Source of the DNA: Candidatus Micrarchaeota archaeon
Lineage (GTDB): Archaea; Micrarchaeota; Micrarchaeia; Norongarragalinales; UBA8480
NCBI GenBank assembly: GCA_021812145.1
Contig: JAKAOM010000003.1
Coordinates: forward strand, 11,737 to 75,736
DNA length: 64,000 nt
Direction of reading: 5' to 3'
Shown: one piece after another, positions 24,157 to 61,375 of the stretch
Numbering within the stretch: position 1 is the first letter of the stretch
Layout: every line of letters starts with the position of its first letter
Notes under the pieces: generated by a model
The model's database searches: none
Seen by the model: the letters and a program-made list of their open reading frames with translations, nothing else
Told to the model about the DNA's origin: nothing
Program-made: the position numbers and the translations under genes

Positions 24157-24190
24157 AACGCCGGCGGAGTGGGGTGCCAAGATTAATAAA
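24157..24190 (+). promoter_or_regulatory. Conserved motif copy a (AACGCCGGCGGAGTGGGGTG) plus TATA-like box ATTAATAAA, 24 nt upstream of the tnpB ATG
   Basis: Member of a 6-copy motif family (see findings). It follows a T7 run, and the motif-to-TATA offset is 25 bp. Confidence 0.5.
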
Positions 24191-33015: not shown

Positions 33016-33078
33016 GCTTTTAACATTTTGAACGGATTGTTTAAATTCCTTTTGATTGATTTTGAACGAAAAGCGGTT

Positions 33079-33901: not shown

Positions 33902-34029
33902 AACTTCACAATAACGTTTTAAATGCTTTTAAAACTTTCCTTTTGAAGAATCTTTTTTTTCAAATACCAAAAAGATTAAAAAGGATTCAAGAGAATTTTC
34001 TAAAAAATCCAAAAGGTTTGCAAAAGCGA

Positions 34030-37000: not shown

Positions 37001-37167
37001 TGAGTTTAATACAAAAAACAATAAACAGCCTTAAACTTGCCGACGCTATAAGCCAGGTTGCTTTTTTGGGCTCTCCAATTATAGAAGAGCAGATTTTCCT
37101 GAAAGCCTATCCTGAAAGCGTTATTTGCAATGTTTTCGCTTCAAAATTCTGCGTGAAAAGTGATTAA
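34030..37167 (+). CDS. Giant pilin-signal adhesin-like protein with parallel beta-helix (PbH1/NosD-like) repeats
   Basis: The ATG at 34030 gives MKTKG|QGALEYILLLAGVLLVVAIVVVIL, a class III signal peptide. More than 15 repeats of the type N-x-I-x-G-N-T/ISNN follow, then a ~430-aa C-terminal domain. Confidence 0.75.
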   Translation: MKTKGQGALEYILLLAGVLLVVAIVVVILKSIVLAPAYQNVNSSNAVLSDLENVNIALPSNSLFYISFPGGPLSLTSGQAVLFVNNNDTAQNLTVLNPDGSTYYTSTLQPGQNVTLTFTNSGNYQASFTGSSGVQTITVSGGSTPPSSNCAPPATGNWVVSGSVVCSSTTIILNGSLIVNSGNSISLNSVTLQINDSSGVGININGGSANIQSSVINNYTSTTFNFTVASGSNFTLQGSTISGLNTGVAFLVESNNAQIISNTIQGDYALTVFNATNDIIQGNTLQGNTRGLYLVNSSYDTISGNNIQSNSGSLFVNFNGASLIGTSAGNVYSQNTFNNLPSGTDLIIGATNGDSVKYNTFENSQNGLEVGINQNMLITENQFTNLEQVGITLIYEDSANTVTSNTFSNVGQGISIQDSYGDITVQSNTFTNSSAVYVTNSTSDNVISNTFNLYPGQTGVLYSSNTANLLVNSNTVNNGDYGFNGPVGGGSNFSNITISNNVFSGQAVDAIHLYNIENSTITGNTIYNSAGYGIDVFGSNNSNISGNTIQNSTTLDVQVTYNSGCSSPSNNTLIQSNNFSFGVFRSTTDSAVNDVGVCSDCNNSGSGTITSILQNLPNNNSITVSQETCPTPPSSGCPYVETSTNGDWTYQGGTILGLVTPYLAAWRTEKLYNTGASTNLSVMIHEIPSETGYYNGFKLLVVDHPTGQAFFNQDEDSTPLIVNNPLNVLNCTDSYDRNCLPQIQNNEFSFLQGKSAIQGFTILNQQNAAQNAWFSPINFSNPLQLNDWIQLTLPSGWKNASEIKLLVTGTATGLNSLAEDYWGENGFNHNIVGFLIQNTPLADIVKKGIYYFSSFSVEAQQADGSWKVVVGNNNCVLDDYKTCAISIPVEEVQTGRVRIVEPAFVNVIDSVKVDYTPSFAFVSSILPSSINAEGISYAESNSGLLTSELTVPENNFVIVNFTGLPPVKPGFKRTYFLDFNGWYDPQPIQDLSLIQKTINSLKLADAISQVAFLGSPIIEEQIFLKAYPESVICNVFASKFCVKSD

Positions 37168-37169
37168 AA

Positions 37170-37601
37170 ATGAACATAACAAGAATAACAATAGGCGTTT
37201 TCGGATTGGCAGTGCTTCTAATAGCAGTCTACTTTCTTTTCCTATCCCAAAGCCAAACCGCTCAAGGCGGGCCTTCAGCCACTACTTCAAACGTTTCAAA
37301 CCCCCTCCCTCCTTCAATGCCATCAGGGCAAACCTCCCTCCCGACAAACTCCTACACCCAATTGAACTTCTCTTTTCCAGGAGAGCAGCTTCAAGTAAAG
37401 AATTATTATGTCAAAATGCTAAACTACACTAACACCACTGCCTTTCTTCAGCTTTTAGATTCAAACCAACAAGTTTTGGGAAGCCAAACGCTGCTTTTGA
37501 ACGAGCCCTTCTCAACCACCTACTACACCGCTGTTTTGGAAAGCGTTTCAAACGGCTCGGTAAACGTCGGTGTTGAAATAAATGGGGTTGTAATCAAATA
37601 A
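37170..37601 (+). CDS. Small signal-anchored secreted protein
   Basis: ITRITIGVFGLAVLLIAVYFLFL is the TM helix. It starts 3 nt after the adhesin stop. Confidence 0.5.
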   Translation: MNITRITIGVFGLAVLLIAVYFLFLSQSQTAQGGPSATTSNVSNPLPPSMPSGQTSLPTNSYTQLNFSFPGEQLQVKNYYVKMLNYTNTTAFLQLLDSNQQVLGSQTLLLNEPFSTTYYTAVLESVSNGSVNVGVEINGVVIK

Positions 37602-37743
37602 AACTCTTGGGTAATTTTTCATAAAACAGGGTAAAAGATTAATTAGCGCGCTATAAAAAACGCAGGGTTTGAACTACTGTAAAATTTTTTCAATAGTTAG
37701 TTTTTTAAAACACCCCTGCTTTAAAATTAAATAAGGTGATGCT

Positions 37744-38085
37744 ATGATGGACGAGTTTGATAAGGCGAGAGATTTGGGATTGATTGGTTTGGGGCTTCTG
37801 GCGGTTTCAACCTCTAAATTGGTTTCCAAGGTTGACGACATGATAGCTAAAAACCAGGTTAATAAAAAAGAGGGGCAGAAACTGATAAAAACACTCAAAC
37901 AGGAGGGAGAAAACAGGAGAATGGAAGTTGAAAACCTCGTCAAAAACGAGTTGAAAGACTTCTACAAAAACGTCTTCGTTTCAAGAAAAGACTTTGAAAA
38001 ACTGGAGAAAAAAATTGAAGCGATAGAGAAAAAAATAGAGAAAAACCTGGGTAAAAACCTAAATTCAAAGAAAAGAAAAAAGTGA
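37744..38085 (+). CDS. K/E-rich helical protein (phasin-like?), directly upstream of ubiB
   Basis: 113 aa, probably coiled-coil, ending in the A-rich run AAAAGAAAAAAGTGA. Confidence 0.45.
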   Translation: MMDEFDKARDLGLIGLGLLAVSTSKLVSKVDDMIAKNQVNKKEGQKLIKTLKQEGENRRMEVENLVKNELKDFYKNVFVSRKDFEKLEKKIEAIEKKIEKNLGKNLNSKKRKK

Positions 38086-38209
38086 TTCAAAAATAGAAAT
38101 AGACTTTTTCAAGGGAAGCGTCAGGGAGTTCAAGCGTTTTCAACGCATAGTAGGCGTTTTCGTAAAATACGGTTTTGGAGGCGTTTTATCAAAAATTTCA
38201 GAACTCGGA

Positions 38210-39736
38210 GTGCACGAAAGGCAGAAAATACAAAAACTGCCTGAAGGAGTGCGGTTGAGACTGGCTTTGAACGAGCTAGGGCCAGCGTTCATAAAACTCG
38301 GCCAGCTTTTAAGCACAAGAACAGATTTCTTCCAGAAAGAAGTTGTCGACGAGCTTGAAAAACTAGATGACAACGCCGAACCATTCGACTTCTCTGAAGT
38401 TGAAAAAATCTTCAGCGAGGAAACAGGCTTGAAAATAAGCGAAGCGTTCAAAAGCTTTGAAAAAAAACCAATAGCATCAGCGTCAATAGCTCAGGTACAC
38501 AAAGCTGTTCTGAAAAACGGTTCTGTGGTAGCAGTAAAAGTTCAAAGGCCCAACGCAGAGGAAGAATTCAAGACAGACGTTGAAATTCTGAAGCAAGCCG
38601 CAACCCTCATTGAGAAATATTTCGAGGAAGCGAGAATATACAACCCCTCTTTAATGGTGGAGGAGTTCGAAAGAAGCGTAAACCGAGAGCTGGACTTTAG
38701 AGTAGAAGCTAGAAACGCGGAAAGGTTCAGGAACAACTTCAAGCAATTCAAGGACGTTCTAATTCCAAAAGTTCATTCAACTCTAAGCGGGAGGAAAATA
38801 CTTGTTCTGGACTTCGCCGAAGGTGTTTCGGCAAAGCAGCTTAAAGCATCCGCCAAAGAAAAAAAGGAGTTGGCCGAAAAAATAACCTTCCTCATAAGCA
38901 AGCAAATCTTTATCGACGGGTTCTTCAACGCCGACCCGCACCAGGGTAACTTCCTATTCACCAAAAAGAAAGTGGCGATGATAGACTTTGGAATGGTAGG
39001 TTTTGTCGACGACGAAATGAAGGAGATAATAGGAGGGTTGTACTCCAACCTGGTTCAGAAAAACCTTGACGCTTTCATGGATAATTTTGTTAAAATATCC
39101 AAAATATCAGACGAGTCGGACGTGGAAAGCTTCAAAAGCGAAATGAACGACTTCATAGAGGAATTCTACGGCGTAACGCCAAACCAGATAGAAATAGGAA
39201 GAATCTTCTTTGAGTTAAGCTCCATGGCAAGAAGATACAAAATCTCAATAAACCCGAAGTTTTTGCTTCTTGCAAAAGTATTCGTAAGCCTTGAAGGAAT
39301 GCAGAAAACCCTTGATCCAGACTTCAACATGATAGAAAACGCAAAAATCTTCATAAAAGAAGTGGCCAAAGAACAATCCAAACCTTCGAATATCGCAAAG
39401 AAAACAATGAAAAACCTATCCTCAATCCAAACCTTCCTAACAACCTTCCCGCCTAAAATAACGCAGATACTTGACAAGGCAGGCTCCGGCAAATTCAAAA
39501 TGGAGTTTGAACACGTAGGACTTGAAAAACCTGTTTACAGAATAGACCGGGCGGTAAACAAAGTCTCAATAAGCATGATAATAGCCGCGCTTCTGGTTTC
39601 AAGCTCCCTGATAATACTCGCAAAGGCAGGCCCGCTATTCGACGGTTTTTCTATTCTTGGGTTTTTTGGGCTTGCGTTGGCGTTGTTTCTAAGCTTTTGG
39701 CTGGCCACCGCAATACTTCTTGAAGGAGAATTCTAA
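38210..39736 (+). CDS. ubiB: UbiB/ABC1 (AarF) atypical kinase family protein with 2 C-terminal TM helices
   Basis: LRLALNELGPAFIKLGQLLSTRTDFF, ASIAQVHKA, FNADPHQGNF, IDFGMVG. The frame is open from 38063 and encodes a family-typical N-terminus, but the first canonical start is the GTG at 38210. Confidence 0.85.
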   Translation: MHERQKIQKLPEGVRLRLALNELGPAFIKLGQLLSTRTDFFQKEVVDELEKLDDNAEPFDFSEVEKIFSEETGLKISEAFKSFEKKPIASASIAQVHKAVLKNGSVVAVKVQRPNAEEEFKTDVEILKQAATLIEKYFEEARIYNPSLMVEEFERSVNRELDFRVEARNAERFRNNFKQFKDVLIPKVHSTLSGRKILVLDFAEGVSAKQLKASAKEKKELAEKITFLISKQIFIDGFFNADPHQGNFLFTKKKVAMIDFGMVGFVDDEMKEIIGGLYSNLVQKNLDAFMDNFVKISKISDESDVESFKSEMNDFIEEFYGVTPNQIEIGRIFFELSSMARRYKISINPKFLLLAKVFVSLEGMQKTLDPDFNMIENAKIFIKEVAKEQSKPSNIAKKTMKNLSSIQTFLTTFPPKITQILDKAGSGKFKMEFEHVGLEKPVYRIDRAVNKVSISMIIAALLVSSSLIILAKAGPLFDGFSILGFFGLALALFLSFWLATAILLEGEF

Positions 39737-40536
39737 ACCCTGCTTTTTAAACCGCTTATCTGCTTTGCAATCTCCCTAACTCCCTTAGCCCTCTGCTCGG
39801 CGAATATTATAACAAAAAGATAAGCTAAACCGCCGGCTATAAAAGCGGCAAGCATTGAAACCTCGGTTGCGAAAAAACCGTCGTAAACAGAAAGAAACAC
39901 TATAGATAGTATTGAAAAACCATACACAAATTCGAACAATCTTGTCTTGACAGTGGATATCGCAATCACAACCATGGCAAGTATAACCATGTCTATAACC
40001 AAGTCAAGCAATTCAGGAACATAACTATATATCCCGTAAGCCTGAGTGATTACTGTGTTTACAGACCCGAGCATGTAAAAGAAGGAAATAACCATTATGA
40101 TTAAAATCAATATCAAATCCATTATCTTTCTCCTATTCAATTGGACGAATATCTCGTTAATGAAAAAATACGCGGCTGCAGCCAGCATTATATGCCCCGC
40201 AAGGTTGAGAAAATCCCCTGCAAACAACGGAAGCACGTTAAACGCGAAAAGCAAATAACTAATTTCGCTCAAAATAAGAAAAATAGAAGAATAGTACGCG
40301 AAAGATAACCCCCTGCTTTTAAGCCTTATATTGTAAAGAGAAGCCGCCATCACTATAGATCCTGCAAGCAAGCCTATGAAAAAAATAATTTCAAGCAATT
40401 CGGACGGGATTACCCCTGAAAAAACGGACGCTAAAATCAAAGCCAGAATAATTCCGTACGCAAAACTGAATTTTCCCATAATTAACTTACGATTGATAAT
40501 TTTTAATATCTTTCCATTAAACGCAAAATATTTCAA
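39733..40536 (-). CDS. Polytopic membrane protein (7-8 TM)
   Basis: Hydrophobic throughout. The start may be the internal MGKFSFAYG. Confidence 0.5.
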   Translation of the reverse strand: MKYFAFNGKILKIINRKLIMGKFSFAYGIILALILASVFSGVIPSELLEIIFFIGLLAGSIVMAASLYNIRLKSRGLSFAYYSSIFLILSEISYLLFAFNVLPLFAGDFLNLAGHIMLAAAAYFFINEIFVQLNRRKIMDLILILIIMVISFFYMLGSVNTVITQAYGIYSYVPELLDLVIDMVILAMVVIAISTVKTRLFEFVYGFSILSIVFLSVYDGFFATEVSMLAAFIAGGLAYLFVIIFAEQRAKGVREIAKQISGLKSRV

Positions 40537-40547
40537 AAAGGTTAAAA

Positions 40548-41366
40548 ATGCATTCCATGGAAAAATTTAAAATGACTCACTTCTTAGCATATATGATGAA
40601 AGATAAAGGGAGCGGCTTTCAATTTGTACTCTTGGGGCTGGTTATAGCCGTTTTAGGGTCAATTCCGTACTTTTTCAGCATTATCCCAAACTCATTCTAC
40701 AACCTTTACTCAGATATAATGTTCTTACTTCTTTTAGGTTTGATACTATTAACCTTCACAAAAGTTAAAAGAACCTTTCCAAGCCTGAAATATTTCAACT
40801 ACGGAATACTGCTAATGTTCATAGCAACAATATTCAGGCTATTCTCAGATTTAGGTATTATACCCGTCTCCTTAAGCGTGATCCTAATCGCCATAGCCTA
40901 CGTTACGATTCTGGCAAGCGCTCTGAACATTTTCTCCGACGTGTTCATCCCCAAACAATACGAGAACGCTGCCATAGCAACAATGCTTGTAATATTCATA
41001 ATAGCGCTGGCTTTTCAATTTCACTCGTTTTACTTCTCCGGAATACCCTCGCTTCAGAAAATCTACTACCTTTTAATACAACCCGCTGATTTGATAATGA
41101 TGCTTTCAACAATACTTCTCGTAATAATAATAAACTCAAAGCTTTTCCTTAAAGTGTACGGATGGCTTATTCTGGCGTTCATTCTGCTTTTCATTTCCGA
41201 CTTCTTCGGAGTTGGGAGCAGGGTGACTGTTTTGCACAACGCTTGGGATTTAAGAGACGTTTTGGTATTCATAGTATATCTGTGCTTCATAAACTTCATA
41301 AGACAGCATATAGACGTCAACCTTGAAGAATTCTTCAAGCCAGCCAAAATAATCCACAAAACCTGA
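40548..41366 (+). CDS. Polytopic membrane protein (7-8 TM), divergent from 39733..40536
   Basis: Similar in size and TM layout to its divergently transcribed neighbour. Confidence 0.5.
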   Translation: MHSMEKFKMTHFLAYMMKDKGSGFQFVLLGLVIAVLGSIPYFFSIIPNSFYNLYSDIMFLLLLGLILLTFTKVKRTFPSLKYFNYGILLMFIATIFRLFSDLGIIPVSLSVILIAIAYVTILASALNIFSDVFIPKQYENAAIATMLVIFIIALAFQFHSFYFSGIPSLQKIYYLLIQPADLIMMLSTILLVIIINSKLFLKVYGWLILAFILLFISDFFGVGSRVTVLHNAWDLRDVLVFIVYLCFINFIRQHIDVNLEEFFKPAKIIHKT

Positions 41367-41437
41367 AACCTCTCTTTTTAAGCAACTCAAAACCTAAATA
41401 AAAAAACTTAAAAACATAAAAAACTCTAAAACAGTTA

Positions 41438-42457
41438 ATGAAGCAGGCGGATTTTTTCGAAGGAATAAACGAGAAAAAAATGAGCGAAGCTCTGAAGCAA
41501 GCGCTTTCCTCAATACCTACTATTGCAAAGGCTAGCGTCAGAATAGCTGAGGACTGCGAGCCCGGTGAGATACATCTTATAATACCAAGGGGAAACATGA
41601 TACTGCACGACGCGGTCAAGGAAGCAATGTCAAATCAAGACAAAAAAGTTAAAAGAATAATAGTGCCCGTAACCCAAGTAGGGTCATACCTTCCTGGAGA
41701 GCTTGAGGAAATACTGATGCAAAAACTTGAAAAAATACCGCCAAACTCAACCCTGCACTACCTAGACGAGTGCGAAACAGGAGACAACAGCGTTCAACTA
41801 TCCAAAGCGCTTAAAAAAATAGGTGATAATTTAAAACTAAACCTAAAAATAGACTTGGTTGCAAGCCACGGAGGTTCGAAAATAACAAAAGAAAACATGA
41901 AAAAACTCAAAGAATTAAACGCCAAAATCCACCCGGTAACAGAAACCCCCTGGATGGACAACCCCCCAATAGAAGGCTACTTTTGGGCCAAGGATTTTCT
42001 CGATGTTTCAAAAATACTTGAAGGTATAAGCGAAAAAAACGCAAAAAAGATAAATAAAACGTTCAACTCGATAATGTACTCTCAGCACGATTGGGTAAAG
42101 AATAGAAAGACAAAAACGCTTAAAATAATAAGATACGACTCGCCAGAATACCTTGAAAGGCCGTTCCAAACGCTTAAAGCACTGCACAAAGCCTTCAAAA
42201 AAACCAAGCTGGACAAAAAATACCGCGTTGCCTTGGACAGAAAAAACAGGATTATATACATAAACGACAAACCTACGCGCGCAAGCCAACTTCTAGAACC
42301 CTCCCAATTAACTTCAGATATTTTCAAGAAGGAAGATCCAAACAGAAAAATAGACAAATACACCCTTCTAAGAGTCGGCCACCCCTACTCTGAAGCTGCT
42401 TTTAAATACAGAGAACAATTGTTTAACGAAATTAAAAGACTATCAATAAAAAGTTAA
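41438..42457 (+). CDS. Hypothetical protein, weak PRTase-like pattern
   Basis: KRIIVPVTQVGSYLPGEL and TLHYLDECETGDNSVQLSKAL loosely resemble the hood and PRPP-loop of type I phosphoribosyltransferases. Confidence 0.3.
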   Translation: MKQADFFEGINEKKMSEALKQALSSIPTIAKASVRIAEDCEPGEIHLIIPRGNMILHDAVKEAMSNQDKKVKRIIVPVTQVGSYLPGELEEILMQKLEKIPPNSTLHYLDECETGDNSVQLSKALKKIGDNLKLNLKIDLVASHGGSKITKENMKKLKELNAKIHPVTETPWMDNPPIEGYFWAKDFLDVSKILEGISEKNAKKINKTFNSIMYSQHDWVKNRKTKTLKIIRYDSPEYLERPFQTLKALHKAFKKTKLDKKYRVALDRKNRIIYINDKPTRASQLLEPSQLTSDIFKKEDPNRKIDKYTLLRVGHPYSEAAFKYREQLFNEIKRLSIKS

Positions 42458-42490
42458 AAAAACACAAATTTGAAACGTGAATTAAAAAAA

Positions 42491-43291
42491 ATGGAAAACC
42501 AGCAAGAAACGGCAAGAAAAATAGTAAAAAGCACGGCTGAAATACTAAAAGAAGTAAAACCTGAAGATAAAATCATATTCCTAGGAAGGGACGCCCTACC
42601 CCACTATGTCACGGCAAGAAAACTTGCTGAATCGATGAATATAGACAGAAGTCAAGTGAAGTTGGTCCAGTCAGGTAAGTTCATGCTTCAAGCAGCAAAC
42701 CACAACCCTGCTGAAAAAAGCAGCCAAAACAGGAAAAACCTTGAAAAATACCTAAAAAAGCTGGAACTTCAGAAAACAATGGAAAAAGAGGGAAAAGTAT
42801 TGATAGTGGACACTGGAATTGGAGGAACTCAGGTGAAAGCGCTTGAAAAAATAATACACCAAATGCACAAGGGAGTAAAAACCCAGAAAAAGCTGATTAT
42901 ATCATCCAACCCCTACATACAGGGGGTGGAAAAAACCGTTCCGCTTCACCTAAAAGATGAAAAAATCAAGAAAATATTTGAAAAAAGAAAGAGAAAACAA
43001 TTGAGAAAGGGTAAAGAAATCGAAGACAGCAAAAAATTGTTTGAAGAGCTAAAAGACAGACAGGAAGAATTCTATGAAAAAGCGGTGACCGACGTGCTGA
43101 GACTGGAAAACCTGCCTAAACTAACTGTGCCCATAAGCGGTTATGATAAAAAAGGAAAACCAATATATAAAGGAAAAATAGAGCCGGGAGATCCACCGCC
43201 AAACTTCCAGGAATACAAAGAATTCAACCAGAAACTCTCAGACGAGATAACAAAATATATTGGAAAAATTAAACGCTTAAAAAAAGCTTAA
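42491..43291 (+). CDS. Hypothetical protein, weak PRTase-like pattern (distant paralog of 41438..42457?)
   Basis: DKIIFLGRDALPHYVTARKLAE and GKVLIVDTGIGGTQVKALEKII resemble the PRPP-binding VLIVDD..TG.T. The ATG at 42491 is preferred over the TTG at 42470. Confidence 0.3.
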   Translation: MENQQETARKIVKSTAEILKEVKPEDKIIFLGRDALPHYVTARKLAESMNIDRSQVKLVQSGKFMLQAANHNPAEKSSQNRKNLEKYLKKLELQKTMEKEGKVLIVDTGIGGTQVKALEKIIHQMHKGVKTQKKLIISSNPYIQGVEKTVPLHLKDEKIKKIFEKRKRKQLRKGKEIEDSKKLFEELKDRQEEFYEKAVTDVLRLENLPKLTVPISGYDKKGKPIYKGKIEPGDPPPNFQEYKEFNQKLSDEITKYIGKIKRLKKA

Positions 43292-43668
43292 TTCTTGAAA
43301 ACTCCCTTAAAAGACTTACTACTTCCAAATAAACTCCTGTACCTGGAGTTAAGAGAAGAATGATACTCTGAAGCTGACCTCCTAACGTCAGGATTGCGGA
43401 ACTCGCGGCTTACATTTTTAAGAGTTTTCAAAGCGTGATCCCAAACAACCAAACTCCTGTTTTTTGAAGCAGTGCTGCTGATTTCGTTCAGTTCACGCTG
43501 AGCCAATAAAACAAGGTTGGGGTGAACCCTCCACTCCTCCTGAACAGGATTTAACTTCATAATATTTTCATGCATCTTGTCAATCTTTCTAATCTCCCTG
43601 CGCTCCCCAACAGCGCTTACATAATTCTTCAACCTTTCAAAAGCCATGGTAAAAATAGTGACGCTCAA
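43288..43668 (-). CDS. Hypothetical protein
   Basis: 126-aa ORF with T/G-ending codon bias, which fits a genuine minus-strand gene in this half of the window. Confidence 0.45.
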   Translation of the reverse strand: MSVTIFTMAFERLKNYVSAVGERREIRKIDKMHENIMKLNPVQEEWRVHPNLVLLAQRELNEISSTASKNRSLVVWDHALKTLKNVSREFRNPDVRRSASEYHSSLNSRYRSLFGSSKSFKGVFKN

Positions 43669-43718
43669 TCTTTTAAACCTTTTTCAACCCTAATAAAACA
43701 ACATTTGCAAACAAAACG

Positions 43719-43928
43719 GTGACAAGATTGAAAGAAAAAGAACGCAAACCAACCTTCAACGACGCGCCTAAACCCAACGGATTTCTAAAACACCCTTCTT
43801 TCACGCCAGACCATCCTTCTTTCATGCCTAAACCCCACGGCGTGACGCCGCAATTCCCAAAAATCGAAGTGCCAAAACCAGAAAGCGTCAACGGCTTTAA
43901 AATCAAAAAAGATTCCAACCGCAAATAA
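43719..43928 (+). CDS. Small Pro/Lys-rich hypothetical protein
   Basis: GTG start. I prefer it to the antisense 43673..43924 ORF on codon bias only. Confidence 0.3.
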   Translation: MTRLKEKERKPTFNDAPKPNGFLKHPSFTPDHPSFMPKPHGVTPQFPKIEVPKPESVNGFKIKKDSNRK

Positions 43929-43982
43929 ACATTACCCTAAAACAACCGACAATTATAAAAACAATTCAACCCCCAGAAATAA

Positions 43983-44846
43983 ATGATGTCCCTACACTTT
44001 TTAAGTCAAATAAACGAATGCAAAAACACGGACGAATTTGTAAAACTTCTAATACCCACCTTGCGAAACGGAAAAATAACCGTTAAAAGAAAACTTACAG
44101 AACAAGAAAAAAGAAAACTGAGAGCGCCAGCAGACTACGTTACCCAACTAGTATTCTATGAAAAGGGAGAAGCTAAAATACCCTTTGAGCAAAAGCACAA
44201 GATAATACTTCACTTTCAAAGAATGTACCACGGCAACAACTACAAATATCAAATGGCAGTAGGCAAATATTCAACCGCGCTTGAAAACCAGGATATGAGA
44301 GACACCTACACCGCAGATTTTATAGCCAACAGAAAACCATACAGCGGAACGGTCATAGAGAACCTCAAAATACCTATGGAAACCATAGAAAAACTAAACC
44401 CTGAAATAATAGATCGAAACGGAACGCCAGTCGCAGTCATAGAACTAACCCAGGAACAGGTAAACCGGATAACTCCCTACTCCAATGCAGGAAACTTTCT
44501 ATGGAAACTCACCGGCTACCTACGATTCCACGCAGGAGAAAAAACAGAAAAAGACAAAAAAATACTTGAATCCTACTTTAAAGGACAAAAAGACGGTGTT
44601 AAAACCTACCTCCCTGAATTCTTCGAAAAATTCATAAGATCAAACCAGAACCAATTAAAAGAAATAATAAACTCTGAAAAAACAAAGGAAAAAATAGCAG
44701 ACGAAGTATCGCGAAAATACGGCATACAACTAAGCGGGTACAAAATAGAAAGCTTCGCAAAACTAGAAAACTACCTCAAAAGAATACCAAAAACAGAAAA
44801 ACAGGCGATGCTAAAAGAAATAGAAGAAATTCAGGTAAGAAGATAA
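43983..44846 (+). CDS. Hypothetical protein (287 aa)
   Basis: No motif recognised. Its stop overlaps the start of the MazG-like gene (ATAATG). Confidence 0.5.
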   Translation: MMSLHFLSQINECKNTDEFVKLLIPTLRNGKITVKRKLTEQEKRKLRAPADYVTQLVFYEKGEAKIPFEQKHKIILHFQRMYHGNNYKYQMAVGKYSTALENQDMRDTYTADFIANRKPYSGTVIENLKIPMETIEKLNPEIIDRNGTPVAVIELTQEQVNRITPYSNAGNFLWKLTGYLRFHAGEKTEKDKKILESYFKGQKDGVKTYLPEFFEKFIRSNQNQLKEIINSEKTKEKIADEVSRKYGIQLSGYKIESFAKLENYLKRIPKTEKQAMLKEIEEIQVRR

Positions 44847-45151
44847 TGAAGAACTACAAGCTCGTAAGAGACAAAATACCTGAAATAATAAGAAAAAAAG
44901 GGTTAAAACCAATAACGCACGCCGCGTCAAAAAAAGAATACGAAACAAGACTAAGGGAAAAACTCGTAGAAGAAAGCAAGGAATTCCAGAAAAGCGGTGA
45001 AAACGAGGAACTCGCAGACATACTGGAAGTGATAAACGCGATAATAAAAACAAAGAAAACCACGATTAAAAAAATAGAGAAAATAAGAAAGCAAAAAAGA
45101 AAAGAAAGAGGATCATTCGGAAAAAAAATAATACTAAAAATAAACAGATGA
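44846..45151 (+). CDS. MazG-like all-alpha NTP pyrophosphohydrolase
   Basis: YKLVRDKIPEII...LREKLVEESKEF...EELADILEVINAI is the typical small MazG/house-cleaning NTP-PPase pattern. Confidence 0.7.
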   Translation: MKNYKLVRDKIPEIIRKKGLKPITHAASKKEYETRLREKLVEESKEFQKSGENEELADILEVINAIIKTKKTTIKKIEKIRKQKRKERGSFGKKIILKINR

Positions 45152-45214
45152 AAAATCACTCGGCGAAACAAACCGCGCTTTAACCAAATAACCGATTTTA
45201 GACATTAAAAAAGA

Positions 45215-45595
45215 TCAGCCAAAAGCCAGCCAAACAAGAATCGTCAAAACAACGCTGGAAACAAAAGAATAAATATGAATCTTCCTGGCCATAACCAAAT
45301 CCTTCAAATGACCCACTGTGCTTCCCACCTTCCCTCTCTTACCCCCAGAACCCTCAAAATCGTAAATTCCAGCCCTGGCGAAACCAGCGCAAAACTTGAA
45401 ATATCCCTGATACGCCCCTTCAAAACCAGCCATAAAAGGAAAAAAGGAAAGCCAAACCCAAAAACTACCCCTCAAAAAATAAACAAAAACAATAGCAACC
45501 AAAAAACCAACCAAACCAAGCAAATACCTCTTCCTAATCTCGTTCTTCCCAATATTGCAAACCCCTGGATTGTACAAAACCATTGATAAATACAA
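45215..45595 (-). CDS. Small membrane protein (3 TM)
   Basis: Hydrophobic segments are present. No family was assigned. Confidence 0.45.
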   Translation of the reverse strand: MYLSMVLYNPGVCNIGKNEIRKRYLLGLVGFLVAIVFVYFLRGSFWVWLSFFPFMAGFEGAYQGYFKFCAGFARAGIYDFEGSGGKRGKVGSTVGHLKDLVMARKIHIYSFVSSVVLTILVWLAFG

Positions 45596-45651
45596 CCGTT
45601 ACAACAATTTAAATGTTTGCAAAAACAGGCGAAGTCATGTAATAAACAAAT

Positions 45652-45831
45652 ATGAAACAAGAACCACCTATATTCATGCAAGATTCAAAAACATCTGAAA
45701 TACTAAAAGAAGTAAAGGAATGCATACCCCCAAAAACAAGAGTCTATATCGTAGGCGGTGCTATAAGAAACGCACTATATTTCAAAATATTCAACAAACC
45801 TCTCAAACCAACGAGGTTTTATGTAAACTGA
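45652..45831 (+). pseudogene. N-terminal fragment of a Pol-beta-type nucleotidyltransferase, truncated by an IS scar
   Basis: TRVYIVGGAIRNALYFKIFNKPLKPTR parallels FWLIGGFVYRTLASVWYGVARPVVDLD in 49630..50196. The reading frame ends before the expected DxD motif. Confidence 0.5.
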
Positions 45832-45905
45832 TAGCGTATAATATTACAGTGCTGATAAACGCTATTTACGAGCTAGGAATACAGCCAAACCTACTTAGAC
45901 TTTAA
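45798..45905 (+). mobile_element. 3'-terminal fragment of an IS related to the transposase at 62186..63376
   Basis: Encodes ..SQTNEVLCKLIAYNITVLINAIYELGIQPNLLRL*, against ..AQKNEALLKALCHNIVVLIHEINELGIPLNQ* at the C-terminus of the intact transposase. Confidence 0.55.
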
Positions 45906-45906
45906 T

Positions 45907-46299
45907 TTAGCGTGTTGGTCTTTTTGTCGAACGTTTCTCATAAAGTCGAGTTTCTGCAATATGATGTTCTCTGTCTGGAGCTACCACTCCATGAACAACT
46001 TCAAAAGCAACCGCTCGTTTACGATCTTCTAAAGGAATTTGCGATATTACCTCAGCAATGCTTGGCGCAAAGTGTCCCACTCCGTTAGGTTCATGAATAG
46101 TTTTAATTATTTTGTAAGGCTTTTGATTGATATCATACGCTATTTGTGTTAGTTTTGGGCTATATGTAAATGCACTATTGATAGGGTCTTCTTCCTCTAT
46201 GTAGCATAAATCTTTTCCTCTTCCAATTCTAATAACTGGTTTTATCCTTTTTGTAAGTTTCTTGAGATCAGCATTTGATATTTTTGGCATTCCTGACAT
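45907..46299 (-). CDS. Hypothetical protein (130 aa)
   Basis: ORF preceded by GGTGAT. No motif recognised. Confidence 0.5.
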   Translation of the reverse strand: MSGMPKISNADLKKLTKRIKPVIRIGRGKDLCYIEEEDPINSAFTYSPKLTQIAYDINQKPYKIIKTIHEPNGVGHFAPSIAEVISQIPLEDRKRAVAFEVVHGVVAPDREHHIAETRLYEKRSTKRPTR

Positions 46300-46566
46300 G
46301 TTATCACCTTATTATTAGAATTAACCTGTTTAAAAAGCTTTATTGTTGCTCAAAAAATCTTAAAAACGCTCAGAAAGTAGTTTTATAGAAGGAGTTTATG
46401 AGCAAAGCTACCTACGCTGGAGGAAAAATCAACGCTATAAAACTCGTGGAAAAGCTTGGAATAAACGAAAACATATTCAACTTCAAAGCAATAAAAAAAC
46501 TAAAAAAAAAACCAGTAATTACAACCTCGTAAAAATCAATACTAACACTAGAACAAGAAAAACAAA

Positions 46567-47160
46567 TTGACGAATACGGAAAACAAGCCAATCTTTTTCT
46601 CCTCAGGAACCCTGGAAACGCTCTTCTTCAACACGCCAATCACAGCCAAATTATCCATAATTACAGAATTAAACGCAAATAAGTTAAAAAAAGCACCACT
46701 CCAAAAACAAAAAAGCTTTAAAACCCTAACAAACACAATCCTTAAATCAATGGAAGAAACCCAAAAAATAATGAAAAACGCTGACTTAGAAAACGTAACG
46801 CTAAGACGCAAACTAATAAGCAACCTGCAAACCAAACTTGAAAAACTCGAAGCTAATCCAGAATACAATAATGAAAAAATAATAAACTGCTCAAAAAAAA
46901 TAGGCGCGGGACTCTTCCACTTGGCAAGAGACTACGGAAACAGGGAAGACTACAAAGACGCGGGAAAATACCTGCTAAAAGCAGTCAACCTAAGCGTTAA
47001 AAAAAAATCGCATACAGAAAAAGAACAAAACGAAATACTAAACATGACAAAAGCAGTGGTGGAATCATTCAACCAAACAGGACAAAAAACAAAAGCAAAA
47101 GACGCAAGCGAAATGCACAAGATAATATCATCAAGATTCAACAAAGAAAACCTAAAGTGA
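46567..47160 (+). CDS. Hypothetical K/N-rich protein
   Basis: TTG start in the track, so the true start is uncertain. Confidence 0.4.
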   Translation: MTNTENKPIFFSSGTLETLFFNTPITAKLSIITELNANKLKKAPLQKQKSFKTLTNTILKSMEETQKIMKNADLENVTLRRKLISNLQTKLEKLEANPEYNNEKIINCSKKIGAGLFHLARDYGNREDYKDAGKYLLKAVNLSVKKKSHTEKEQNEILNMTKAVVESFNQTGQKTKAKDASEMHKIISSRFNKENLK

Positions 47161-47244
47161 CTTTTACCAATTGACGGAATAAGAGACGCGTGGGAATTTG
47201 AAAACGACAAATACAACTTCTCATCCAATGAAACAAGCAAAAAA

Positions 47245-47478
47245 ATGAAAGCAAACCTCAACAAATTTGCGACAAAAATGAAAAGAATAATGAAAACGCG
47301 AGAACAAACACCTATCTTGAAAAAACCACACCTCCACCTACAAACCCACATAACAACAGGACCAAAAGAAAAAGACTTCATCACGCTAAGAGCAGAATTC
47401 AAAAACCTAGAAAACCCCTACCAACACACAGGCCTAAAACCAATCCCAATAAAAAAACCTAAAAAACCAAACATTTAA
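47245..47478 (+). CDS. Small basic hypothetical protein whose 3' end lies in direct repeat A
   Basis: Ends ..FKNLENPYQHTGLKPIPIKKPKKPNI. The peptide KNLENPYQHTGLKP recurs at 48842-48883. Confidence 0.3.
   Translation: MKANLNKFATKMKRIMKTREQTPILKKPHLHLQTHITTGPKEKDFITLRAEFKNLENPYQHTGLKPIPIKKPKKPNI
47401..47442 (+). repeat. 42-bp perfect direct repeat, copy A
   Basis: AAAAACCTAGAAAACCCCTACCAACACACAGGCCTAAAACCA, identical to 48842-48883. Confidence 0.9.
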
Positions 47479-47576
47479 ATACATAGTATACTATATAATA
47501 TTCATAAAATATACAATAGTATAATATATGATTAAAAAGTGATTTTAGAACGGATAGGGAAACTCTAAAACTGGTT

Positions 47577-48818
47577 GTGGCAGACCAGAGAAAAAAAATA
47601 GAAGAACAATACAAAAGGAACATAATCCAAAGAGAAGTAACCCCAACCATAGATCTGAAAAACCCGACAGCCCTGGCAATACTAGGAGTAAGAAGATGCG
47701 GAAAATCAACTCTATCCACGCAACTATTCAACGGGCAAGACTTCGGATACATAAACTTCGATGATGAAAGACTGCTCGGAGCGACAAAAGACGACCTGAA
47801 CACCATACTCCAAATATTCTACGAACTGTACGGAACAAAACTAGAAAACATAATACTCGACGAAATACAGGAAATCTACGGCTGGGAGCTATTCGTAAGC
47901 AGACTCAGAGACACAAAAAAAGTGATTATAACAGGCTCAAGCTCCAAACTCCTAAGCAGCGAACTATCAACACACCTAACAGGAAGACACCTAGACCTTC
48001 TACTATTCCCCTTCAGCTTCAAAGAACTGCTAAAATACAAGAAAATCGAAACCCGCCCAAACCCAACAACCGAAGAAAAAGCAGAAATAATGAAAACGCT
48101 CGAAGACTACCTAAACAACGGAGGATTCCCTGAAAGACTGACGATAGGAAAACAAATCACAAAAAACATATACGAAGACATCATAACCAAAGACGTCGTC
48201 ATACGCCACAAAATCAAACACGTGAACGACCTAAGGCAAATAGCGCGCTACATGATAGCAAACACGGCAAAAGAATTCACCTACTCCTCACTCAAAAACA
48301 TAACCAGAGTAAAAAACATGATAACCCTAACCAACTGGGTAAAATACATCGAAGAAGCATACCTCGCCTTCACAATAGAAAAATTCTCCTACAAACTCAA
48401 ACAAACAATACTAGCCCCAAAAAAAACATACAGCGTGGATAACGGAATCACAAACGAGATAAACACAGAACTAACCAACAACAAAGGAAGACTCATGGAA
48501 AACACCGTGGCGATAGAATTAATAAAAAAAAGCAAAAACCAAAGAAAATTCAACGTCTACTACTGGAAAAACCAACAGGGAAAAGAAGTAGACTTCATAA
48601 CACAACACGACAAAACACTACAACTAATACAAGTAACCAACGCCTCAAACCAAGAAAAAATACAAAAAAGAGAATACGAATCACTACTAAAAGCCTCAGA
48701 AGAACTACAATGCAACAACCTAACCATAATAACCTGGGACTACGAAAAAAACACGACAGTACAAGGAAAAAAAATAACACACACCCCACTCTGGAAATGG
48801 CTACTACAACAAGAATAA
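47577..48818 (+). CDS. AAA-family ATPase (AAA_14 + DUF4143 type)
   Basis: ILGVRRCGKSTL (Walker A), ILDEIQEIYGWELFVSRL (Walker B), C-terminal GKEVDFI. GTG start in the track. Confidence 0.8.
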   Translation: MADQRKKIEEQYKRNIIQREVTPTIDLKNPTALAILGVRRCGKSTLSTQLFNGQDFGYINFDDERLLGATKDDLNTILQIFYELYGTKLENIILDEIQEIYGWELFVSRLRDTKKVIITGSSSKLLSSELSTHLTGRHLDLLLFPFSFKELLKYKKIETRPNPTTEEKAEIMKTLEDYLNNGGFPERLTIGKQITKNIYEDIITKDVVIRHKIKHVNDLRQIARYMIANTAKEFTYSSLKNITRVKNMITLTNWVKYIEEAYLAFTIEKFSYKLKQTILAPKKTYSVDNGITNEINTELTNNKGRLMENTVAIELIKKSKNQRKFNVYYWKNQQGKEVDFITQHDKTLQLIQVTNASNQEKIQKREYESLLKASEELQCNNLTIITWDYEKNTTVQGKKITHTPLWKWLLQQE

Positions 48819-48841
48819 AAAAACTAAAAAAACCAACCTCC

Positions 48842-48883
48842 AAAAACCTAGAAAACCCCTACCAACACACAGGCCTAAAACCA
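48842..48883 (+). repeat. 42-bp perfect direct repeat, copy B
   Basis: Identical to 47401-47442. Together the two copies bracket the AAA ATPase gene. Confidence 0.9.
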
Positions 48884-48926
48884 CTCAAATAAGAATTACA
48901 CTCCTTCTAAACTTCCCATCTTTTTT

Positions 48927-48960
48927 ACGCCGGCAGTGGGGGGCGCAAAAGCTTTTAAAC
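48927..48960 (+). promoter_or_regulatory. Conserved motif copy b (ACGCCGGCAGTGGGGGGCG) plus TATA-like CTTTTAAAC
   Basis: It follows a T6 run. It lies 89 nt upstream of the ATG at 49049. Confidence 0.45.
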
Positions 48961-49048
48961 TTAAAGAGAGCAAAATATAATTACATCGCTATCATCATCC
49001 TATCCTTGAAAAAAGAGGGGGGTCATGATAGTTTAAAAACCGATTCCT

Positions 49049-49576
49049 ATGACCGAAGAAGGCATTGAACAATATATAGAACACTATAGAAAAAAACTGA
49101 GCACAGGCCAAGGCTTAGACCAGCAAAGAAATGACATAAGAAAATTCATGCACAAAATTTACAGAATCCAAAACCACAGCACCATAGAAGGAAAACAAAC
49201 ACTAGGAAAAGCAATAGACGCGCTAAACGAAAGCATACCAACACACCCAGACGCCGGAGGATCAAAAATAAGAAAAGAAACAATGACTGCCATGACAAAA
49301 CTAGCTACAATGAGCGAAACACCCTGGATAGTGCAAAAAACCCTAGACTCGCTCCTACAACACGCAGAAAACCAAAGTCAACTAACAAGACTCCACGCCC
49401 TACAACACGCCGACAACCTACTACAATCAGAACAAAACATGTTCATCCCACTCGAAAAAGACAAAAACAAAGAAAAAATACGAAACAGCGCCCTAAAACT
49501 AAGCAAAGAAACCCACGGATACATCAAAGGACAAGCCATCAAAATAGCAAAAACGAACATCCACTCATTCAATTAA
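49049..49576 (+). CDS. Hypothetical helical protein (175 aa)
   Basis: ATG start and strongly A/C-ending codons. No motif recognised. Confidence 0.5.
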   Translation: MTEEGIEQYIEHYRKKLSTGQGLDQQRNDIRKFMHKIYRIQNHSTIEGKQTLGKAIDALNESIPTHPDAGGSKIRKETMTAMTKLATMSETPWIVQKTLDSLLQHAENQSQLTRLHALQHADNLLQSEQNMFIPLEKDKNKEKIRNSALKLSKETHGYIKGQAIKIAKTNIHSFN

Positions 49577-49580
49577 ACAA

Positions 49581-49603
49581 CCACCCCCTACACTGCCAGC
49601 GTC
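49581..49603 (-). promoter_or_regulatory. Conserved motif copy e, inverted (GACGCTGGCAGTGTAGGGGGTGG on the minus strand)
   Basis: On the minus strand it is preceded by a T6 run. It lies between convergent genes, so it is probably not acting as a promoter here. Confidence 0.4.
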
Positions 49604-49629
49604 AAAAAACAGTACGCCATCAAACATTT

Positions 49630-50196
49630 TCAAGGAAAAACAGGAGTGAAACCCAACTCTCTAGCCTTACCCTCAATAAAATCATTAACAGACAAACCCT
49701 TCATCCTAGCAGCATACTCGGCAAAACCCAAATCATTAACACAAACCACCCTATCCACCAAAGCCTTAATCCCAACATTCCCTATAACTTTTCTTTGAAC
49801 ACAATCATAAGCGATCGACTGAACGTTAAGAGGAACGCCAGACAAAAAACTCTCAATACTAGGCTCCACACCACGCTTCAAAATCGAATAAACGTTATTC
49901 AAAGGAACATAATCCACAACCAAACCCCCACTCACAAGCTTAGGATTACCATACCTATTCTTCTTAACCACCCAACCCTCGGGCAAATCAAAAACATCAA
50001 CAGGCCTCTCAACCAAAAAATCCAAATCAACAACCGGCCTAGCCACCCCATACCAAACACTAGCCAAAGTCCTATAAACAAAACCACCAATCAACCAAAA
50101 ACCACCAACACAATTCCCCTCCACAACACCTAAAACATCCAAAAAAACAGAATCGTCAACACCACTCAAAAAATCACCAGTAACATCCATAAACAA
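49630..50196 (-). CDS. Pol-beta-superfamily nucleotidyltransferase-like protein with extreme Val/Gly-rich composition
   Basis: WLIGGFVYRTL..(12)..VVDLDFLV fits the GG-x-x-R ... DxD NTase pattern. 34 of 188 residues are Val, and the coding strand is very A-poor. Confidence 0.5.
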   Translation of the reverse strand: MFMDVTGDFLSGVDDSVFLDVLGVVEGNCVGGFWLIGGFVYRTLASVWYGVARPVVDLDFLVERPVDVFDLPEGWVVKKNRYGNPKLVSGGLVVDYVPLNNVYSILKRGVEPSIESFLSGVPLNVQSIAYDCVQRKVIGNVGIKALVDRVVCVNDLGFAEYAARMKGLSVNDFIEGKARELGFTPVFP

Positions 50197-50277
50197 ACAA
50201 CTAAAACAAACAAAAATAAAAAACCAACACCCTCAAAAAAACAAACAAACACTAAAACAATATAAATAATCTAAACT

Positions 50278-50307
50278 CTAAATAGTAGTATCTCCTCTAC
50301 TATTTAG
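50278..50307. repeat. 11-bp perfect inverted repeat with 8-nt spacer
   Basis: CTAAATAGTAG-TATCTCCT-CTACTATTTAG. Confidence 0.85.
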
Positions 50308-50352
50308 TTATAATGGTAGCGACAAAACCGACAAAACCTCAGAGGTAAAAAT

Positions 50353-50414
50353 TGCGGGATAGTGCGGGATTCTGCGGGATACTCTAAACACTTTTGCGGG
50401 ATACTCTGCGGGAT
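50353..50414 (+). repeat. Iteron-like array: TGCGGGAT x5
   Basis: Copies start at 50353, 50363, 50373, 50395 and 50407. The first three are spaced exactly 10 bp apart, and copies 3 and 4 share CTGCGGGATACTCT / TTGCGGGATACTCT. Confidence 0.85.
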
Positions 50415-50418
50415 TCTC

Positions 50419-50438
50419 GACCCCAAACTGCCGGCATA
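50419..50438 (-). promoter_or_regulatory. Conserved motif copy f, inverted (GCCGGCAGTTTGGGGTC on the minus strand)
   Basis: This is the reverse complement of GACCCCAAACTGCCGGC. It directly abuts the iteron array. Confidence 0.4.
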
Positions 50439-50480
50439 ACCTCAGTAGGATTACATTTTAAAATCATTTAATACCATAGA

Positions 50481-53065: not shown

Positions 53066-53302
53066 TTGTTAGATTATGTTATGGTTGTAAATAATATGGA
53101 GTTACCACAAGTTAATATTATTGTAACTATTGTTTTAATTATTATCGTTGCCGGCATTACATATTTTGTGCAGCAAAACAGTTATGTGTCAAATATTTCA
53201 GCATTACAATTACAACAGAATAATTATATATTAAATATTTCAAATTTACAATCACAACTTAGTCAAACACAAAATCAACTACAAGCTTCAGTCAATAAAT
53301 GA
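53066..53302 (+). CDS. Small signal-anchored N/Q-rich protein
   Basis: TM helix VNIIVTIVLIIIVAGITYFV followed by Q/N/L repeats. It lies in a very AT-rich segment. Confidence 0.4.
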   Translation: MLDYVMVVNNMELPQVNIIVTIVLIIIVAGITYFVQQNSYVSNISALQLQQNNYILNISNLQSQLSQTQNQLQASVNK

Positions 53303-57107: not shown

Positions 57108-57240
57108 TTTTTCTCTAAAGGCAGCGAATTACAAGAAAAACCACAAAAAATATGGAATTTCAAGAAAAAACCATACGAATGAATGAAGTTTTAAAAAAAA
57201 ATAATTACAAAAAAATGATTTAACGCCGGCAGTGAGGGGT
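57051..57240 (+). repeat. Repeat R1 (~190 bp): last 57 nt of the arsR-like gene plus downstream region ending in motif copy c
   Basis: Near-identical to 61145-61338 apart from a few substitutions and A-run length changes. The left part also matches 59290-59391. Confidence 0.85.
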
Positions 57241-57256
57241 TGAAAGATTTATAAAC
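57222..57256 (+). promoter_or_regulatory. Conserved motif copy c (AACGCCGGCAGTGAGGGGT) plus TATA-like ATTTATAAAC
   Basis: The motif-to-TATA offset is 25 bp. It lies 82 nt upstream of the ATG at 57338. Confidence 0.5.
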
Positions 57257-57337
57257 ACTGAAAAGTAGATTTATAATAACGAAGAGAGGCCCTCATCTCT
57301 TTTTGCATGCCTCTGCCCTTGAAAAAGGTGAACATGT

Positions 57338-61144: not shown

Positions 61145-61338
61145 TACCCGCCACACAACCTAAAAAACTACTTCAAAGGCAGAGTGAAACACAAAGAATG
61201 ATTTTTATCTAAAGGCAGCGAATTCCAATAAAAAACCACCAAAAATATGGAATTTCAAGAAAAAATCATACGAATGAATTAAGTTTTAAAAAAAAAATAA
61301 TTACAAAAAAAATGCTTTAACGCCGGCAGTGTGGGGTG
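61145..61338 (+). repeat. Repeat R3 (~194 bp): 18-codon arsR-like 3' remnant plus downstream region ending in motif copy d
   Basis: YPPHNLKNYFKGRVKHKE* followed by sequence colinear with 57108-57240. Confidence 0.85.
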
Positions 61339-61354
61339 CTAGGATTTAAATATT
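61319..61354 (+). promoter_or_regulatory. Conserved motif copy d (AACGCCGGCAGTGTGGGGTG) plus TATA-like ATTTAAATATT
   Basis: The offset is 25 bp. The box lies ~24-30 nt upstream of the ATG at 61376. Confidence 0.5.
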
Positions 61355-61375
61355 GTTTAATATATCTAAATTCAG

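Follow-up and report, generated by a model that had tools for sequence, protein, structure and literature searches.

What might an array of short, helically phased direct repeats do in a small archaeal genome, where it lies beside a palindrome between two divergent genes? The locus stands near 50.3 kb of a 64,000-nucleotide stretch (hereafter the window) of contig JAKAOM010000003.1 from a Candidatus Micrarchaeota archaeon, the genome of which is a small metagenome-assembled genome (MAG; G000) of 757 kb in 26 contigs that is 78% complete; one protein from a congener bears the NCBI label 'Candidatus Marsarchaeota'. The array, the spacer before it and the palindrome, or hairpin, are homologous to those of 11 other loci with the same geometry, and the repeats of these modules co-vary with the recognition helix of a winged helix-turn-helix (wHTH) domain in two forms of membrane protein, X and Y. 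Judged from the sequences, the array is very likely a cis-acting binding site for a winged helix of the X/Y type, as far as binding as such is concerned. By analogy, and with slightly more confidence than doubt, we propose that array, spacer and hairpin form a genus-specific cis module that would serve as the docking or loading site of a membrane-bound DNA-handling complex; a role in DNA translocation or transfer is suggested by analogy only.

Five direct copies of the 8-mer TGCGGGAT start on the + strand at 50353, 50363, 50373, 50395 and 50407, with start-to-start steps of 10, 10, 22 and 12, and copies 3 and 4 are extended to (C/T)TGCGGGATACTCT. This agrees with a preliminary description of the locus, which was equally right about the palindrome, whose 11-bp arms CTAAATAGTAG (50278-50288) and CTACTATTTAG (50297-50307) match perfectly around an N8 centre, about the presence of an inverted GCCGGCAGT..GGGGT copy at 50420-50437, and about the location between the divergent nucleotidyltransferase-like and AN1/transglutaminase-like genes (P0001 and P0002, respectively). 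The 8-mer occurs six times in the window against 1.06 expected, and at least six copies were seen in 0 of 100 shuffles. On both strands of the whole genome there are 10 copies, five of them in the array, compared to ~13 expected from composition; there is thus no excess outside the array and no regulon-like spread. The palindrome arms have a single occurrence genome-wide. Between 50197 and 50480, there is no open reading frame of at least 50 amino acids, the longest one across the array being a 40-amino-acid TTG frame, and an Rfam scan of the window returned one tRNA only.

Homologous modules share a layout and differ in their repeats

Further exact arrays of TGCGGGAT, for which the preliminary description had proposed a search, did not turn up. 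Among 401 genomes of the phylum there were chance double matches only, one of them inside an ABC-ATPase gene, and viral, metagenome and genome collections gave only unrelated tandem repeats, mostly coding, with a search pattern that was too permissive; the conserved spacer, searched as 15-mers against viral contigs, gave chance matches only. Homologous modules with other cores, on the other hand, were found. A DNA search of two congeneric genomes (G402 and G356) with 38.0-57.9 kb of the window returned one short non-coding match, of 50202-50352 to contig C1 of G402. The G402 locus has the same A/C-rich leader, a palindrome changed on both arms, the same spacer (GGTAGCGACAAAACCG ... CTCAGAGGTAAAAAT) and an array in which the core TGCACGAT takes the place of TGCGGGAT, with steps of 10, 10, 10, 22 and 12. 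In an alignment of the two arrays, which pairs five copies, the same two positions differ in four of the pairs, window copy 3 faces a degenerate TGCACTAT in G402, one additional copy stands at the 5′ end of the G402 array, and some inter-repeat spacers (AG, TT/TC) are kept. Modules beyond G402 were reached by following conserved DNA pieces and proteins, which gave a total of 12, namely the window module and 11 others from the same genus and from metagenome contigs (L-numbers denote contigs, metagenome contigs among them; Table 2). Their neighbourhoods differ wholly and hold radA, toxin-antitoxin pairs or SecD-like genes, and one 0.9-Mb genome carries several modules of differing specificity in variable cassette-rich regions.

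The common layout starts with a hairpin whose loop contains CTCC; a spacer with AGAGGTAAAA at its end follows, and then 5-8 direct repeats. The distance from AGAGG to the first repeat is 11-12 nt in 7 of the 8 modules measured and 19 nt in the second module of this genome, which adjoins a Y gene, and the repeat steps are typically 10, 10, (10), 22 and 11-12 irrespective of the repeat sequence. The cores themselves vary among modules (TGCGGGAT, TGCACGAT, TGCAC(G/A)AG, (G/T)GCACGC, TACACGAT, TACACGC, TGAACGAT, GGCACGAT, TGGGCAAG and TGTC(C/T)AACG; also GGGCAAGT). Relative to the gene, the array points the same way in every module, and long A-rich leaders stand beside the hairpin in all of them. 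The hairpin dyad is kept through at least three unrelated stem sequences, with 58 of 64 loop-proximal pairs being Watson-Crick in the eight modules compared, every one of which has CTCC in the hairpin centre. A ~10-bp period, which fits double-stranded DNA, together with cores that do not vary inside a module, although its spacers do, and that switch jointly from one module to the next, reads as the signature of protein-binding iterons on double-stranded DNA. In this respect, the preliminary description, which had seen iteron-like phased protein-binding repeats with a palindrome, is supported by the conserved geometry, the module-specific cores and the co-variation with the recognition helix; its suggestions of a replication origin and of recombinase arm sites are not, as set out below.

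The same features bear on the possibility that array and hairpin act as RNA, i.e., as the 3′ untranslated region and terminator of the X/Y transcript, the window copy then being a stranded 3′ untranslated region. On the gene strand, the order is indeed stop codon, array, hairpin and T-rich run; the stems co-vary, and the window hairpin, which is followed by a T-rich run on the minus strand, is terminator-like in a terminator scan and may also be a terminator. However, neither strand folds better than its shuffles (z -1.0 and +0.5), and a structured RNA was rejected on this ground; both the ~10-bp period and the co-variation with a helix of DNA-binding type speak for double-stranded DNA. We regard a role as RNA as very unlikely.

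Replication slippage can create short tandem-like units, and the repeats could in principle be its neutral products. Against this, the cores are perfect and the spacers differ, the geometry is kept in 12 modules with different cores, and the G/T-rich cores run against a strong opposite mutational bias, so that we consider slippage extremely improbable. In the window, the TGCGGGAT repeats are G/T-rich and all five are perfect, on a strand where neutral sequence has ~12-25% G+T; that all five stay intact under pressure against G and T argues for continuing use or recent loss.

Membrane proteins encoded beside the arrays

Nine of the 11 other modules adjoin a convergent gene for X or Y, with the array beginning at its stop codon or no more than ~45 bp away. 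In form X (231-261 amino acids; P0035-P0038), a multi-pass, hydrophobic N-terminal part is joined by a charged linker to a DeoR/MarR-like winged helix at the C-terminus. Form Y (600-655 amino acids) has a hydrophobic N-terminus, transmembrane helices, a P-loop ATPase, and the same linker and wHTH as X, these last two being the only region that X and Y have in common (53% identity, E 2e-32). The Y ATPase matches DUF87/HerA (E 3.5e-12) and, weakly, FtsK_SpoIIIE (E 6e-5) and TrwB; its best PDB match is HerA, and the best NCBIfam match of Y is the DNA-translocating ATPase CedD (E 9.6e-17), at 60.8 bits and hence far below the 600-bit cut-off of that family. In an order-level sample of 68 genomes, X and wHTH-bearing Y are confined to this genus. 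Near Y, no mobile-element hallmarks were found.

The recognition helix of the wHTH and the repeat core change together (Table 1). Identical helices pair with identical cores, across X and Y proteins alike, and a Lys-to-Asn change in the helix accompanies a G-to-A change at repeat position 2 twice independently, in two backgrounds. Such co-variation, in what is a small sample, is what direct readout by the helix predicts.

Table 1. Recognition helices of X and Y proteins and the repeat cores found with them
Recognition helix	Where found	Repeat core
VSKR(T/A)AVYD	G402 (X), L462 (X), L483 (Y)	TGCAC(G/A)
CSKRTAVRD	G356-C49	(G/T)GCACGC
VSNRTAVTD	L463, closest to G402 type	TACACG
VSNKTAVSD	G356-C56, closest to C49 type	TACACG
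VGKVTAVSE	L485	TGAACGAT
VSKQTAINY	G356-C66	TGGGCAAG
VDRRTVDRY	this genome's Y	TGTCYAACG

In the mechanism that we propose, the repeats would be bound one per helical turn, on one face of the DNA, by the C-terminal winged helix of membrane-anchored X/Y proteins, with each module's own repeat sequence matched to its own recognition helix, and the array would mark for a membrane-bound complex the DNA that it is to hold or pump. The partner gene of the window copy would have been cut away exactly at a cassette-junction motif, and the array would either be served in trans by a protein encoded in the unassembled 22% of the genome or be a recently stranded relic.

For the same protein-DNA pair, the main rival is that X/Y bind the array for membrane tethering or partition, as a centromere-like site. 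X has transmembrane helices and a wHTH and no motor; the arrays adjoin the gene of the binding protein, as parS/parC sites do; orphan arrays of a matching type occur elsewhere in the chromosome (GGCACGAT on G356:C7 compared to the array on C49); and in G402 the gene divergent from X (L340 2977-3636, G402:C1) encodes a product whose N-terminus we take, by eye, to resemble ScpA (..NPWDIDLSEITEKY..). On the other hand, no ParA, ParM or ParB family or other segregation ATPase was present among the neighbours scanned, and several differing specificities in one 0.9-Mb genome, in variable cassette-rich regions, would be an odd pattern for segregation. Tethering or partition is doubtful on this evidence.

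A different partner, namely a local regulator, would be involved if the array were an operator or upstream activating site for the divergent P0001 and P0002 promoters. Regulators of the ribbon-helix-helix and wHTH types typically bind short phased repeats, and the array does stand between two divergent genes: the TATA-like box of P0002 (50454-50465) follows it at ~40-100 bp, and the P0001 promoter also has the array upstream. However, the homologous modules have entirely other neighbours, and the relatives bearing the module lack both P0001 and P0002, the flanking genes not being conserved in the family. In the 9 sister modules with a convergent gene, the array is downstream of that gene and not in a promoter; the repeat cores are absent from the X and Y promoters and confined to the arrays, and the 8-mer has no regulon-like spread. 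A function as an operator is thus unlikely.

The orphan array of the window and its surroundings

The homology to G402 stops a few bases past the last repeat, exactly at the start of the inverted GCCGGCAGT..GGGGT motif; the GCCGGCAGT motif is absent from the G402 module, and the inverted window copy falls in an alignment gap. The preliminary description had counted this copy as part of the cluster, which did not hold, since the motif is absent from all homologous modules and marks a breakpoint, at the position where the wHTH gene would begin. The P0002 gene stands where sister modules carry their wHTH gene. From this alignment, the window array appears to be an orphan copy, the partner gene of which was replaced exactly at the junction motif.

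The motif belongs to a genus-conserved family, (TTCACGCTGG..)ACGCCGGCAGTG-N-GGGGTGC-N-AAGATTTA(A/T)A, with eight copies in this genome and two in G356 (Table 2). Its core normally lies ~10 nt upstream of a TATA-like box, at cassette boundaries, and the similarity between copies stops right after the TATA box. The genes behind it include tnpB, toxin-antitoxin and other accessory genes, one of which we take, by eye, to be a probable Dam-type methylase. The motif may serve for upstream activation, for cassette recombination or for both. The two minus-strand copies nearest to the array bracket P0001, the leader, the hairpin and the array, which suggests that the bracketed segment was moved or cut as a cassette, parting the array from its gene. 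A short direct repeat, AACCTCAGAGG (50327-50338) and AACCTCAGTAGG (50437-50449), lies around the array plus junction motif, each copy standing before an A/T-rich, TATA-like stretch; the pair may be the scar of a duplication or have arisen by chance.

There is a second orphan, on G356:C7, where a small wHTH gene and a possible toxin gene, by eye a toxin-antitoxin-like pair, come after the array GGCACGAT. Since this array resembles the one beside the X gene on C49, arrays may be served in trans. Three G356 contigs (C56:3-1421, C26:3-1463 and C29:26-166) start precisely with the 3′ end of a gene of Y or X type, C56 carrying a second Y copy at its start; modules therefore break MAG assemblies and are probably under-counted.

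Several observations weigh against the module being a docking site for a DNA-handling complex. As for binding, the co-variation sample comprises ~9 helix-repeat pairs. No X or Y gene adjoins the window array, and a search of the assembly for a cognate wHTH (tblastn and a wHTH profile) found only Y, whose own array differs, so that binding of the window array is assignable to no protein of this genome. As for the complex, X has no ATPase, which makes a pump function impossible for X-type modules by themselves, and the Y ATPase belongs to the HerA clade, whereas TraB is of the FtsK/SpoIIIE clade. An array is lacking at one Y-type gene (L484), and the module neighbours scanned included no gene for a channel, an integrase or a Rep protein. 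In addition, distant relatives of the Y ATPase (L477, G115:C17; L478, G371:C9; L479, G338:C73), with 27-34% identity, have another C-terminal domain, which we take by eye to resemble a DUF559/Vsr-type endonuclease, and have no downstream arrays; because of this, the combination of wHTH and array seems to have come about by a domain swap, on a scaffold of HerA plus an effector.

Strand composition also bears on the question of a replication origin. A very strong strand-specific composition bias, independent of gene direction, is seen in the window (33000-50340) and in the whole genome. The G+T fraction of the + strand falls gradually from ~0.45 to 0.12-0.25 toward 50.27 kb and then jumps to 0.4-0.5 at ~50.27-50.34 kb; under this bias P0001 is recoded, with more Val, Gly and Phe than its homologues, and is Val/Gly-rich where these have Lys, Glu or Ile. 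The shift at the module is one of magnitude with no reversal of sign, and the DNA to the right of it is a stack of accessory cassettes, according to PADLOC and Pfam matches. The jump is therefore interpreted as old resident DNA meeting younger, unskewed cassettes, and not as an origin. A similar G+T jump occurs at ~60.2 kb of contig C26, beside a low-GC island.

The preliminary description had named plasmid or viral origins as a typical setting of such a layout, and the module could be where an integrated plasmid or virus starts its replication, X or Y acting as the initiator. Iterons, a palindrome and a long A-rich tract make up the classic layout, the skew reaches its extreme immediately to the left of the module and falls sharply at it, and iteron-binding initiators use winged helices. 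Nevertheless, no Rep, primase, helicase or MCM-type gene was present in or near any module among the neighbours scanned, X and Y are membrane proteins, the modules are multi-copy within the chromosome, and in G402 and G356 the same bias runs on across the module, the jump in the window being explained by the younger cassettes. As for an archaeal oriC, the only orc1/cdc6 gene (Cdc6_C match) is on contig C6. An origin is quite unlikely. Arm sites of a tyrosine recombinase were rejected too, since PF00589 had no match anywhere in the assembly (78% complete) or next to those sister modules that were examined.

The two genes flanking the module do not seem to be part of it. P0001 has the GG...DxD pattern of Pol-beta-type nucleotidyltransferases and no match in Pfam or NCBIfam; its homologues elsewhere sit among housekeeping genes without arrays, which places P0001 outside the module, and a link to it was rejected. 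The same applies to P0002, which has a weak transglutaminase-like match only (DUF553, E 0.009) and for which no orthologues were found in the family. A TATA-like ATATAAATAAT lies at 50260-50270 within the A/C-rich leader.

Some other repeats and genes were noted in passing. To the left of the module, a 46-nt direct repeat (98% identical; 47400-47445 and 48841-48886) brackets an AAA_14/DUF4143 ATPase gene, the product of which matches the PADLOC candidate defence family PDC-S01 (E 1.7e-99); genes that we take, by eye, to encode DUF4143-like ATPases adjoin the X modules on G356 C49 and C66. To the right, a 42-nt tandem duplication (74% identity; 53171-53254) lies in an AT-rich island right of a methyltransferase gene. 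Just past the Y module of this genome, three direct TTTATGCACA repeats, ~21-22 bp apart, lie at C8:88590-88650 (~76.85-76.91 kb in window numbering, beyond the window), upstream of a gene for a 164-amino-acid protein with a paralogue 1 kb on. Two unrelated AT-rich metagenome contigs (L196 and L108) hold intergenic-looking, iteron-like arrays with no evident relation to the module, e.g., TGCGGGATGACAATGTGGAG x4 after an inverted ATCCCGCA.

Table 2. Positions of the module, its neighbours and related features (window numbering unless a contig is named)
Feature	Position	Strand	Remarks
TGCGGGAT x5 array	50353..50414	+	putative array of binding sites for an X/Y-family winged-helix protein
Spacer GGTAGCGACAAAACC(GACAAAACC)TCAGAGGTAAAAAT	50315..50352	+	conserved in the G402 alignment; AGAGG anchor 11-12 nt before the first repeat in nearly all modules
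Hairpin/palindrome	50278..50307		11-bp arms and 8-nt centre TATCTCCT
A/C-rich leader	50197..50277		G+T fraction 0.12-0.14; intergenic, upstream of the minus-strand gene
P0001 gene	49630..50190	-	186-amino-acid nucleotidyltransferase-like protein
P0002 gene	50481..52337	+	618-amino-acid protein; zinc finger, transmembrane helix, Cys-rich repeats, transglutaminase-like part
Inverted GCCGGCAGT(N)GGGGT cassette-junction/promoter motif	50420..50437	-	84% complementary to 48925-48943
Second minus-strand junction-motif copy (GCTGGCAGTGTAGGGGG)	49584..49603	-	
Junction-motif sites, window	24157-24190, 48925-48960, 49584-49603, 50420-50437, 57222-57260, 61319-61357		
Junction-motif sites, elsewhere	C8:79142; C10:16810; G356 C4:16559, C12:8772		
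Second module of this genome	C8:87.95-88.15 kb		outside the window
Modules in G356	contigs C49, C66, C56, C7		
Modules on metagenome contigs	L462, L463, L483, L485		
Y proteins	this genome C8:86020-87954; G356-C56; P0040; P0042		

Comparison with known systems

Several known systems resemble the module in part. As in iteron plasmid origins, phased and replicon-specific repeats co-evolve with a winged-helix protein encoded alongside, and an A-rich tract and a palindrome are nearby; in contrast to such origins, there is no Rep-like initiator, the partners are membrane proteins, the skew does not reverse its sign, and the repeats are 8 bp at a 10-bp period compared to ~17-22 bp at a 22-bp period. 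FtsK gamma is the C-terminal wHTH of a hexameric DNA pump anchored in the membrane, and the 8-bp motif that it reads, KOPS, is oriented; the arrays have a fixed orientation too. KOPS are dispersed over the chromosome and skewed towards dif, whereas the sites described here lie in one ~60-90-bp cluster beside a gene. Short direct-repeat arrays beside the gene of the binding protein are also found in R1 parC/ParR, pSK41 parC, pSK1 par and RacA/ram; unlike these centromere-like arrays, the modules have no partition ATPase or actin-like partner, and their binding domain would be a wHTH and not a ribbon-helix-helix.

The likeness to the Ced system (CedB/CedD) lies in CedD being the best curated family match of Y, with the score already given. 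CedD is a transmembrane-anchored HerA/VirB4-like ATPase needed for DNA import in archaea (Sulfolobales; PMC11868833); the account of CedD there includes neither a wHTH nor recognition repeats. The genes seen near Y included none for a CedA-like channel.

The closest known system is TraB/clt of Streptomyces plasmids (pSVH1, pJV1, pIJ101 and pWTY27), TraB being an FtsK-like, membrane-anchored P-loop ATPase and clt the transfer locus of these plasmids. We used the definition of a clt locus in PMC3583192 and PMC4447253 for the comparison: several direct repeats of 7-9 bp plus inverted repeats, in ~50-180 bp of non-coding DNA, that adjoin or overlap the 3′ end of traB/traA. The direct 8-bp repeats of a clt region are plasmid-specific and are read by the corresponding TraB (PMC4447253), by means of helix alpha-3 of its C-terminal wHTH according to a statement in PMC3583192 that cites Vogelmann et al. 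2011. The window has five 8-bp repeats within 62 bp of non-coding DNA and a palindrome 46 bp away; the setting of the repeat specificity by the recognition helix is seen here as co-variation only; and a position beside the 3′ end of a translocase-like gene is lacking in the window and present in 9 of the 11 sister modules.

In summary, we take these loci, on the basis of their sequences, to form a family of wHTH/iteron modules that is restricted to one archaeal genus, has a layout like that of TraB/clt and has not been described before. A more far-reaching proposal, which we make tentatively and by analogy and consider possible although less probable than not, is that the genus has a family of sequence-directed membrane double-stranded-DNA translocases, with a HerA/CedD-like ATPase and a swappable wHTH, each of which would read the 8-bp repeat array behind its own gene and would move DNA between cells or mobilise chromosome segments as an archaeal counterpart of TraB/clt. 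If so, motor-less X proteins and orphan arrays would be competing or additional docking points, the Lys/Asn-to-G/A pairing would be a readable recognition code, and the family would be a second, independent invention of the TraB/clt principle. For DNA handling or transfer in archaea of the DPANN type, with their very small genomes, a membrane ATPase-wHTH protein with its repeats would be a directly testable candidate machine, for which the matched helix/repeat sets would offer a natural specificity series; for annotation, the module accounts for a class of odd intergenic repeat arrays. The differences from TraB/clt are an archaeal host, an ATPase of the HerA/CedD clade, a partner without ATPase (X) in about half of the modules, modules that are chromosomal and multi-copy, a window copy that lacks its partner gene, and a transfer role that is proposed by analogy only. 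What the two have in common are module-specific short repeats and an inverted repeat at the 3′ end of a gene and, in Y, the order of transmembrane helices, ATPase and wHTH.

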